From: an uncultured Atopobium sp.
GTDB lineage: Bacteria > Actinomycetota > Coriobacteriia > Coriobacteriales > Atopobiaceae
Reading direction: 5' to 3'
NCBI GenBank assembly: GCA_938028635.1
Contig: CALIZK010000032.1
Location: forward strand, 1 to 58,492
DNA: 58,492 nt
The first letter of the stretch is position 1; each line of letters opens with the position of its first letter. Below, piece by piece: positions 36,785 through 39,700 of the stretch. The position numbers were made by a program, and so were the translations under genes. Under the pieces are notes generated by a model. It had not been told where the DNA came from. It did no database searches and worked only from the letters and a program-made list of their open reading frames with translations.

Positions 36785-39700
36785 TTACTCGTCTTCGCCG
36801 TCTGCCTCAGCGTCCATACGGACAACCTGGTTAAGCAGGTCATCCAGAGAACCAAGGTCCTCGTTGATTACATCAGGGCTGACCTCGTCGGAAGAAGAGC
36901 CGATGAGTGTCTCGGTGTAATCAGAGTGAGTGGATGGAGCTGCGGAACCCAGCATGAGGCCACCGTCGCCTTCTGGCGAGAAGACCATGTTGAGCAGCTG
37001 AGAAAGATCCTCAGAATCAGCCTCATCCTCTTCTGGCTCAAGGATGTAGAGGAGGTTACGAGCCTCAAGGCCATCGCGGAGCTCCTCGATTGCCTTTGCA
37101 CCAATACCATCGATGCGAAGCAGGTCTTCCTCGGTCTTACCAATAAGATCGCCTACGGTCTCAATGCCAACCTCGCTGAACTTGTTGGTCCAACGCTGTG
37201 ACACGCCAAGATCGTCGAAGAGGTACAGCTTTGCATCCTCGCTTGAGAGCGTGCGGCCATTCTTGGAGTAAACGCCACCGTTGTAATCCTCGTTGACCCA
37301 GTCAAGCTGCTTAGGAAGCTGCTCCTCGATGTCCTTAAGCTCTGCTGGTGCCCAGTCTGGAAGAGACTTAGCAAGAGAAGAGGTTGGGCCATCAATCTTG
37401 GTGCCGTGGTACGTAAGCTCAACATCGTTGTATGCGGAGAGACCCGTACCTGCAGGAATCTGCTTACCAACAATAACGTTGGACTTGAGGTCAAGCAGGT
37501 GGTCAACGTCGCCCTCGATAGCTGCAGAGGTAAGAACGCCTGCAGTACGGATGAACGATGCGCTGGAGAGCCAAGAATCAATAGAGCTTGCAACCTTCAG
37601 CGTACCAAGGATTGCTGGCTCTGCCTCTGGTGGAGTACCACCAGCAAGGGCAATGTTCTGGACAGTCTCTGCAAAGACATAGCGGTCCACATACTGACCA
37701 AGCAGGTACGAAGAGTCACCTGGGTTGGTAACCTGAACACGGCGAAGCATCTGACGTGCGATAACCTCGATGTGCTTATCGTTGAGTTCTACACCCTGGG
37801 AGGTATAGACGTCCTTAACGGACTCAACGAAGGTGTGCATAGTGGACTCAATGTCAGTGAGTCGACGGAGCATACGGAAGTTGACAAAGCCGCGGGTAAT
37901 CTGGTCACCAGCACGGACAACAACGCCATCCTCAATGCCAGGCATGAAGCGGACGGATGCAGGTACACGCCACTCCTCGATAACACGGGAAGCATCGTCT
38001 GCATCAACAATACGCAGCAGGTACTCGGTAGTCTCTGGGGTAATGTGAAGAACACCAGAAACAGGAGCCAGGTCAGCCTCGCGGCCAAGAATCTTCTCGT
38101 TGACGTTGCCGACGACGTCGAACATACGAGCAACGGTAGGAAGACCCTGCGTAATATCGTCTGCGCCTGCAACACCACCGGAGTGAATGGTACGCATGGT
38201 CAGCTGAGTACCAGGCTCACCAATGGACTGAGCTGCGATAATACCAACTGCAGTACCAATGTTGACAGGACGACGGGTGGAAAGATCCCAACCGTAGCAC
38301 TTCTGGCAGACGCCGTACTTAGACTTACAGGTCAGAAGCGCACGGAGCTGAACCTTAGCAAGGCCGTGCTCAACAAGACGCTCAAGATCCTGCTTGGACT
38401 CAACATAGCCACCAGCAGGGATAAGAACCTCGCCAGTGTTTGGATCGCAGACATCCTCAAGGGTGCAGCGGCCAATCAGGTCAGTATCAACAGAGGTCTG
38501 ACCAGGCTTAATCAGAGGATACGTGACTGCCTCATCAGTACCGCAGTCCTCCTCGCGAACAATGACGTCCTGTGCAACGTCGACGAGTCGACGAGTCAGG
38601 TAACCAGAGTCGGAGGTGTGGGAGGCGGTATCTACCAGACCCTTACGAGCGCCGTAGGTAGAAATGAAGTACTCAAGAGGCTCAAGACCCTCGCGGAAGT
38701 TTGCCTTAATTGGAAGGTCGATGGTCTCACCGGACATATCCGCCATCAGGCCTCGCATACCAGCAAGCTGGCGAAGCTGTGTCTTAGAACCACGAGCTCC
38801 AGAGTCAGCCATCATGTAAATTGGGTTGTTCTCTGCAAAGCCTGTAAGCATCTCAGAGCCGAGAAGATCGGTGCACTCGGTCCATGCGTTAACAACCTCA
38901 ACGTGACGCTCTCGCTCGGAAAGGAAGCCGTCCTCGTAGTACTCGTTGATCTGGTCAACGCGGTCCTGTGCCTCCTGAAGCAGCTGTGGCTTGTGTGGAG
39001 GAATGACAGCATCCCAAACAGAAACGGTCAGACCAGCAAGAGTTGCGTAGTGGAAGCCAGTCTTCTTGATGTTGTCCAGAATTGGCTCAACATCAGCCAT
39101 TGGGTAACGGTCGCAGCAATCGTTGACCAGAACACCAATGTCGGACTTAACCATCTTGTAGTTGATGTATGGGTAATCCTCTGGCAGGCACTGACGGTTG
39201 AAGATAATGCGACCAACAGTGGTCTCAAAACGCTTGGTGCCCTCAGTAACGTCCAGGTCCTCATACTGACCGCGGCCAGTCATAACGCGGAAGATAGCAC
39301 GATCGCTATCAGCAACGTTTGCATCCTTGGAGCTTACGCGGACAACAACCTTTGCCTGAAGATCAAGGTCACGGTTAGCCTCAATAGCCAGAAGAGCATC
39401 CTCAAAGCTTGCAAAGGTAAGAGTCTTAGCGTCTTCACCGGTCTTCTCGGAAGTGAGGTAGTAGACACCAAAGACCATATCCTGAGAAGGAACGGTCAGA
39501 ACCTTACCAGAAGCAGGGCTTCTGAGGTTGTTGCTGGAGAGCATCAGAATGCGAGCCTCTGTCTGTGCCTGAGTAGAAAGTGGCACGTGGACAGACATCT
39601 GGTCGCCGTCGAAGTCTGCGTTGAATGGTGCGCAGACCAGAGGGTGCAGGTGGATTGCCTTACCCTCGATAAGGACTGGCTCAAATGCCTGGATAGACAG

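Follow-up and report, generated by a model that had tools for sequence, protein, structure and literature searches.

A 58,492-nucleotide stretch of DNA from an uncultured Atopobium sp. (contig CALIZK010000032.1; hereafter called the window) carries rpoC, the gene for the beta' subunit of RNA polymerase (RNAP), in a form whose reading frame continues well beyond the last motif shared by all beta' subunits. The C-terminal extension encoded there almost certainly holds a domain of the same family as the RNAP alpha subunit's C-terminal domain (alpha-CTD; Pfam family PF03118), which has a helix-hairpin-helix (HhH) fold. This beta'-tethered alpha-CTD-type module is under strong purifying selection, and its presence on a long-form beta' means that the holoenzyme has a third module of this type, besides the two carried by alpha. 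Bacterial activators and UP elements recruit RNAP chiefly through the alpha-CTD, of which, to our knowledge, every studied RNAP has exactly two. The long-form beta' architecture is already known from a curated NCBIfam equivalog model and from public records annotated with PF03118, and as a discovery it is therefore modest.

Identity of the domain in the RpoC tail

The rpoC gene occupies positions 36785–41215 of the minus strand and encodes 1476 amino acids, from a GTG start codon to a stop codon at 36785–36787. Pfam Rpb1 domains 1 through 5 span residues 8–1168, and the final motif common to all beta' subunits, IPAGTG, is located at residues 1253–1258 (37442–37459, minus strand). From there the frame runs for another 218 residues. 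Because solved actinobacterial beta' chains already continue for 45–65 residues after this motif (5tw1_D is matched at positions 1252–1273 of 1317 and 7vpd_D at 1234–1255 of 1307), the net extra length of the window protein is nearer 150–170 amino acids than 215.

Alignments, profile matches, structure prediction and composition divide the extension into three parts, all encoded on the minus strand. A linker (residues 1259–1319; 37259–37441) begins with a conserved opening and continues as a variable acidic spacer. It is followed by the alpha-CTD-like HhH domain with an additional N-terminal helix (residues 1320–1388; 37052–37258), within which the PF03118 match covers residues 1334–1384 (37064–37216). 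The protein then ends in an acidic tail (residues 1389–1476; 36788–37051) that has a net charge of -24, with 25 aspartate or glutamate residues and a single lysine or arginine among its 88 positions.

The assignment to the alpha-CTD family is supported by sequence profiles and by pairwise alignment. PF03118 (RNA_pol_A_CTD) matches RpoC with 33.9 bits when the whole protein is searched and with 37.1 bits (E 2.5e-9) when the tail is searched alone, compared with a gathering cut-off of 23.8. A six-frame scan of the window genome reveals exactly two PF03118 loci, which are rpoA (98.2 bits) and the rpoC tail (39.4 bits). The genuine alpha subunit gene, rpoA, is also present in the window (12038–12991, minus strand; CTD match at 12065–12250) and was used as a comparator. 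When the 215-aa tail was compared by BLASTP with the RpoA of the same genome, one alignment resulted, 55 residues long and without gaps, in which 22 positions are identical (40%; E 5e-9). With phmmer, the tail had 56 PDB matches at E ≤ 1, of which the 50 best are without exception alpha subunits (best E 2.1e-6). Five of the remaining six are beta' chains, aligned solely over the initial 22 residues of the tail. Complexes of alpha-CTD with Spx, CAP and NusA are among these PDB matches. The generic profile for an HhH pair, as in NusA AR and RuvA (PF14520, HHH_5; cut-off 27), stayed below its cut-off in window RpoC, with 17.1 bits for the whole protein and 20.8 bits for the tail. Related beta' tails reach up to 25.0 bits (L017) with this profile, and a tandem form described below (L041) reaches 33.4.

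Structure prediction leads to the same assignment. The 224-residue tail, in which positions are counted from the isoleucine of IPAGTG, was modelled with AlphaFold2 (AF2) from a 25-sequence alignment. The mean predicted local distance difference test score (pLDDT) of the model is 61, with values of 79–85 over the domain (tail residues about 80–135). Comparison by VIA-align places the domain on residues 250–316 of E. coli alpha with a Z score of 9.8 and a root-mean-square deviation (rmsd) of 1.6 Å over 67 residues, and the 50 matches listed are all alpha subunits. The top Foldseek matches are likewise all alpha subunits (probability 1.00). Chains that consist only of the CTD superimpose with an rmsd of 1.2–1.8 Å over 55–63 columns and a target TM value of 0.66–0.86. 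The best Foldseek E-value is just 1e-3, since all 224 residues of the mostly disordered tail served as the query.

The initial annotation of this gene, made from the sequence, had proposed an alpha-CTD-like domain fused within a C-terminal extension of beta' of about 215 amino acids, and had pointed to a profile search and a structure prediction as ways to check it. Both agree with the proposal, as does the conservation described below. The stretch quoted there as the domain, which ends in EARNL, corresponds to residues 1333–1388 (window 37052–37219) and was correctly placed. The RpoA CTD sequence was also quoted correctly, and its gapless alignment to the beta' domain and the very acidic character of the segment that follows the domain were both reproduced.

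Distribution and conservation of beta' C-terminal modules

To assess how widely the extension occurs, the tail was searched for in 201 genomes of the class Coriobacteriia, 94 of which (families f1–f4, window genome included) belong to the order of the window, Coriobacteriales. This survey of RpoC C-termini, also suggested by the initial annotation, finds the full tail in 94 of the 94 genomes of the order (E ≤ 1.2e-42), with no stop codon inside any match listed. Except where a contig end cuts the gene, rpoC open frames in the order are about 1460–1500 codons long. A database search with the tail identified 1826 proteins at E ≤ 1e-3, and PF03118 is carried by 120 of 120 among the matches listed, whose source names include Lancefieldella, Atopobium sp. 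oral taxon 199, Olsenella, Thermophilibacter and Tractidigestivibacter. One database protein (P0022, 1493 aa), 82% identical over the tail, lists the glycosyl-hydrolase domains PF01915 and PF14310 in addition to PF03118 and late Rpb1 domains, and probably reflects a chimeric gene prediction on a contig of 5.5 kb.

An alignment of 29 distinct tails of the order (11 from a first batch and 18 of 20 from a second, in which L055 and L059 gave no tail) was used to measure conservation along the extension. The domain core has a mean pairwise identity of 0.82, with 35 invariant positions in tail residues 74–136, and thus exceeds the last 20 residues of the beta' core (0.71). Within IPAGTG, positions I1, P2, A3, T5 and G6 are invariant in 25 tails. 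The linker opens with the consensus LTYKG ... LPDWAPxELKEIExxLP. Its mean pairwise identity (tail residues 21–67) is 0.48, and values elsewhere are 0.21–0.50. The net charge of tail residues 1–80 is -6, and the AF2 pLDDT of the linker is 43–63.

The acidic tail is present in 29 of the 29 aligned sequences and contains two conserved motifs. Motif 1 (residues 1401–1415; 36971–37015, minus strand) has a mean pairwise identity of 0.79, with D151, S153, L155, L156, M158, F160 and P162 (tail numbering) invariant in all 29 tails. AF2 predicts a helix at tail residues 149–160, where 10-residue blocks have mean pLDDT values of 51–62. Motif 2 (residues 1448–1464; 36824–36874, minus strand) is a predicted amphipathic helix of the LxxLDxLL type with a mean pairwise identity of 0.50. 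Positions L205 and L209 are strictly conserved, L208 almost so, and the helix predicted by AF2 extends over tail residues 196–220 with a pLDDT of about 50–71. A complex prediction for the domain (tail residues 68–141) and the acidic tail (142–224) gave a score of 0.00 and a mark of 0.32, a result that bears neither way on whether the acidic tail folds back onto the domain.

In other orders of the class, the alpha-CTD-like domain ends beta' in 14 of 14 tails (families f5, f7–f13, f15, f19 and f24; L020–L033). The post-domain acidic tail is absent from all of these, such that the domain forms the extreme C-terminus. Acidic linkers are found in all class tails examined. The domain, rather than the acidic tail, is thus the older and more general element. 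The beta' C-terminal query had no match in two class genomes, G125 (f20) and G145 (f21).

In eight of eight genomes examined from f6 (five genomes), f14, f16 and f23, two C-x8-C-x10-C-x2-H repeats replace the domain on the same linker. These CCCH-type sequences, which include YCGVHAK-like repeats, occupy the last ~70 residues of the rpoC tails (L035–L039 from G003, G021, G053, G015 and G006 of f6; L045 from G075, f14; L046 from G149, f23; L047 from G089, f16). Among the tails scanned with profiles (L036, L037 and L039, all f6), DUF5763 (30.0 bits) and zf-TRM13_CCCH (25.0 bits) each exceed their cut-off in one tail, and zf-primase remains below its cut-off. The only PF03118 match in the CCCH-type genomes is rpoA. 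Judged from these sequences, the relationship between the CCCH fingers and the alpha-CTD-like domain looks like a module swap on one tether.

Outside the class, at least two PF03118 matches are present in 30 of 278 sampled genomes of the phylum, and 29 of these 30 were examined. The sample includes 11 unpublished genomes, each with a single match. Two Actinomycetota genomes outside the class encode an RpoC in which two tandem alpha-CTD-like domains directly follow IPAGTG. These are L040 (G310:C46, family f47, 460–1026, minus strand; PF03118 65 bits in two stretches) and L041 (G215:C67, family f40, 495–1124, minus strand; 82 bits in two stretches). A database search with the G310 tail yielded 11 beta' proteins of 1336–1408 aa with PF03118 and six shorter ones without it. 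In five further genomes (G257, G336 and G420 of f47; G228 and G283 of f46), the PF03118 match falls in open frames of 1346–1464 aa, and in four of the five the match and rpoA share a contig, with the match ~20 kb upstream. From their length and position, these frames probably encode RpoC. The match in G456 is cut by a contig end, and that in G291 scores only 25.3 bits. The second matches of G462 and G339 were considered as RpoC candidates and rejected, since they are not RpoC. Separately, G267 (f36) has a 94-aa open frame directly downstream of rpoA (G267:C1:2464989-2465177; PF03118 65 bits), which constitutes a free-standing extra alpha-CTD.

We also considered whether the beta' tail might be complementary to the RNAP-binding protein RbpA (PF13397). 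RbpA was not found in the window genome or in G003, G030, G310 and G215. It was likewise not found in five of five f47 and f40 genomes that have rpoA as their sole PF03118 match, and it was found in G462. Because RbpA is equally missing with and without a beta' fusion, its absence tracks lineage and not the tail, and the idea was dropped. Coriobacteria are not mentioned in those parts of a study of RbpA co-evolution (PMC5121209) that were covered by a term search.

Possible roles of the beta'-tethered domain

We take the DNA-contacting '265 determinant' of E. coli alpha-CTD to comprise R265, N268, N294, G296, K298, S299 and E302. When 27 beta' tails (13 of the order and 14 of other orders) were mapped onto RpoA of E. 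coli K-12 (NC_000913.3), five of these seven positions proved to be kept in window RpoC (R, N, G, K and E), including the four that the initial annotation had reported as retained (R265, N268, G296 and K298). The equivalents of R265, G296 and E302 are conserved in 27 of 27 tails, K298 is lysine in 24 of 27, and N268 is asparagine in 13 of the 13 tails of the order. Domains of the order also carry basic residues at positions 269 (K, 13 of 13), 291 (R, 12 of 13) and 304 (R or K, 13 of 13), and the hairpin of the domain reads GIG, as in canonical HhH motifs. The 265, 261 and 287 determinants of alpha-CTD are defined in general terms in the consulted part of PMC1874639, where the 261 determinant is assigned to contacts with sigma region 4 and the 287 determinant to contacts with AR1 of CRP. 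At the first of these protein-contacting sites, E261 is replaced by G in 27 of 27 beta' tails, and D258 and D259 are kept in the order. At the second, all 13 tails from the order have E (seven) or D (six) in place of V287, with T285 and E286 retained. Contacts of the CRP type may be irrelevant in this phylum.

We tentatively favour, with a probability of roughly 0.4, a reading in which the beta' module would make an auxiliary contact with nucleic acid from the end of a flexible tether, with the acidic tail gating access. The module would act as a third, non-canonical alpha-CTD and would most likely contact duplex DNA through its HhH hairpins and the face that carries the R265 and K298 equivalents. 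The acidic tail may be an internal competitor, or an element bound by a partner, that controls access to this DNA face. The reading draws on the retained R265, G296, K298 and E302 equivalents together with the basic residues at 269, 291 and 304, and on the canonical GIG hairpin. It also draws on the modules found elsewhere, since CCCH zinc fingers, a module type usually associated with nucleic acids, occupy the same tether in sister families, and the domain is duplicated in other classes.

Several observations weigh against a nucleic-acid contact. Two residues of the presumed DNA face are replaced in all 27 tails (N294 by G and S299 by A), S266 is replaced by W in 26 of 27, and N268 is kept in 6 of the 14 tails from other orders. 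The 56-residue domain has a net charge of -6, compared with -1 for E. coli alpha-CTD and -2 for the CTD of the RpoA of the same genome, and it is flanked by a linker of -6 and a tail of -24. Conservation of nearly the whole surface (0.82) exceeds the needs of contacts to the DNA backbone and fits a protein interface equally well, and both zinc fingers and HhH domains can also bind proteins.

Alternatively, the alpha-CTD fold may have been kept as a docking hub, a landing pad for regulators or for a part of RNAP (an activator, NusA, sigma or alpha-CTD), with the motifs of the acidic tail serving as short linear motifs for further partners. The acidity of the domain, the conservation of almost every position and the replacements N294G, S299A and S266W all suit such a role, and motif 1 is both conserved and predicted to be helical, as a docking motif would be. 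Moreover, alpha-CTD is well known as a hub for activators, and the Spx, CAP and NusA complexes are among the PDB matches to the tail. However, the residues through which alpha-CTD is known to contact proteins are lost at E261 and V287, and the preservation of R265, G296, K298 and E302 is hard to explain without a DNA-like ligand. The substitution of CCCH zinc fingers in sister families also suits a nucleic-acid role somewhat better. We regard docking as only slightly less likely than the nucleic-acid contact. A different proposal, that linker and acidic tail mimic nucleic acid to keep non-specific DNA or RNA off the enzyme or to aid recycling, with the domain as a mere spacer or anchor, would have parallels in sigma region 1.1 and in the acidic C-terminus of the Firmicutes delta subunit. 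It accords with the extreme composition of the tail, with the -6 charge of tail residues 1–80, with the acidic linker of every class tail examined and with the mostly low-confidence, disordered AF2 model outside the domain. Yet it needs neither a folded HhH domain conserved at 82% nor invariant motif residues, and the 14 tails of other orders keep the domain without the acidic segment, which together make mimicry improbable.

An artefact of read-through or misassembly, or a decaying fusion without function, has next to no chance of accounting for the extension. The same open frame is found in 94 of 94 genomes of the order with no stop inside the matches listed, PF03118 accompanies the tail in every listed member of the 1826 database relatives, conservation of the domain surpasses that at the end of the beta' core, and NCBIfam provides a curated model of the full-length protein. 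The initial annotation had named two observations that would speak against it, namely the lack of a profile or structural match and the absence of the extension from close relatives, and the opposite was found for both.

A broader formulation of the nucleic-acid reading can also be considered, in which the beta' C-terminus of Coriobacteriia and other deep-branching Actinomycetota would be a swappable socket. A conserved tether would hold interchangeable modules that read nucleic acid (a single or a tandem alpha-CTD-like domain, or paired CCCH fingers), and in Coriobacteriales the module would be a true third reader of promoters or DNA, gated by the motifs of the acidic tail. We consider this formulation doubtful. 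If it were true, abundant gut and oral bacteria would recognise or regulate promoters in a way not known from any studied RNAP.

Coriobacteriia include common genera of the human gut, mouth and vagina, and their RNAPs encode the third, beta'-tethered copy of alpha-CTD. Were the module to contact DNA or regulators, promoter architecture and regulation across the class would depart from the models of E. coli, Bacillus and Mycobacterium, and the exchange for zinc fingers would be a natural experiment on the purpose of the tether. In our literature searches we came across no paper that addresses what the beta' tail does, and no structure or biochemistry of a polymerase with a beta'-tethered alpha-CTD. 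In the consulted parts of a 2024 survey of beta and beta' architecture (PMC11515920), the terms 'CTD', 'HhH' and 'Coriobacter' are absent, and the figure legends state that N- and C-terminal residues outside the shared core were masked.

Genomic context and comparison with known systems

The rpoB gene, encoding the beta subunit, is located directly upstream of rpoC (41221–44781, minus strand; Pfam Rpb2 domains 1, 2, 3, 45, 6 and 7). On the 3' side of rpoC are genes for an ArsR/MarR-type helix-turn-helix regulator (36217–36600, minus strand) and a CobW/HypB/UreG-family GTPase (35513–36187, minus strand). A promoter-like site is present downstream of rpoC at 36692–36665. The 184-nt gap that follows the gene yielded no terminator-like site, a result that carries no information. 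The rpoA frame as listed opens with TTG (window 12980–12991, minus strand), but translation may really begin at an ATG that lies four codons further downstream (MSEFIRP...). The window genome is 99.76% complete, and its match to the omega subunit (G000:C37:8093-8269) scores 24.3 bits, slightly below the Pfam cut-off of 26.

The domain also occurs outside RNAP. A search with the 74-residue domain over 1.84 billion representative sequences yielded 1127 proteins (E ≤ 1e-3); from the 150 listed, 15 were scanned with Pfam. After fragments of orthologs, the best matches to the beta' domain are 28–46% identical and have up to 12 matched stretches. The scanned proteins contain arrays of PF03118 as well as fusions of the module to SNF2/ResIII helicases, an Mrr nuclease and sigma-70 region 4, and no Rpb1 domains were found in these 15 non-RNAP candidates. 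Metagenomic proteins are among the matches with repeat arrays (P0140, P0141 and P0143; 806–1031 aa), and some metagenomic matches have three to four domain repeats fused to helicase, nuclease or sigma-70 region 4 domains. Seven proteins considered as many-repeat forms of RpoC (P0176, P0193, P0206, P0212, P0223, P0256 and P0261) were rejected because they lack Rpb1 domains. Helicase or nuclease domains are also present in P0193, P0212, P0223 and P0261, and P0176, P0206 and P0256 consist of alpha-CTD-like and HhH matches only. Two further proteins, P0183 (1090 aa) and P0238 (1022 aa), carry near their N-termini a domain that is 65% and 57% identical, respectively, to the beta' tail domain. In each of them sigma-70 region 4 is matched too and Rpb1 domains are lacking, and the P0238 cluster occurs on 56 contigs. 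Their likeness to the tail domain may reflect domain exchange with beta'. NCBIfam also gave a weak match to PglW of BREX systems. The arrays and fusions outside RNAP indicate that the domain is a mobile module and that its fusion to beta' is one of several architectures. Relative to the beta' domain, the repeats in helicase, nuclease and sigma fusions and in PglW are the same PF03118 module, but they are not part of RNAP.

Among catalogued beta' families, window RpoC matches NF011498 (PRK14906; 1459 positions) essentially end to end, with 2838.2 bits over residues 2–1473 on model positions 2–1451, compared with a cut-off of 1437. The tail alone scores 348 bits on model positions 1223–1451. This equivalog, named 'DNA-directed RNA polymerase subunit beta'', is therefore the family of the window protein, with no structural difference between them, and the model carries no functional statement on the tail. 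We believe that the CDD title of PRK14906 is 'beta'/alpha domain fusion protein'. The general rpoC model TIGR02386 (1541 bits, residues 11–1263; cut-off 963.5) stops where the extension starts. The beta' subunits of f47 and f40 Actinomycetota (L040 and L041) likewise have PF03118 fused to a tethered beta' end, but they carry two copies right after IPAGTG and lack both the long conserved linker and the acidic-tail motifs of the order.

A further comparison can be made with NusA, whose acidic repeats AR1 and AR2 are of the HhH type; in E. coli, alpha-CTD is bound by one of the two. The beta' domain resembles them as an acidic HhH-type domain on the transcription machinery, and one alpha-subunit chain in the list of PDB matches, 2jzb_A, presumably comes from a complex of alpha-CTD with NusA AR2. 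Unlike a domain of the NusA AR type, the beta' domain falls below the HHH_5 cut-off (20.8 versus 27) and above that of PF03118.

The closest known system is alpha-CTD itself (E. coli RpoA residues 249–329; PDB 1LB2 and 3K4G), with which the beta' domain shares its Pfam family, its fold and attachment to RNAP through a flexible linker. The equivalents of R265, N268, G296, K298 and E302 are kept in the beta' domain, whereas E261 has become G, V287 E, N294 G, S299 A and S266 W. In contrast to alpha-CTD, which is carried by the N-terminal domain of alpha, the beta' domain is mounted on the beta' C-terminus and is present as a single copy besides the two on alpha. It is also more negatively charged than its E. 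coli counterpart (-6 versus -1, or -2 for the CTD of the same genome), and it is trailed by an acidic tail with motifs of its own.

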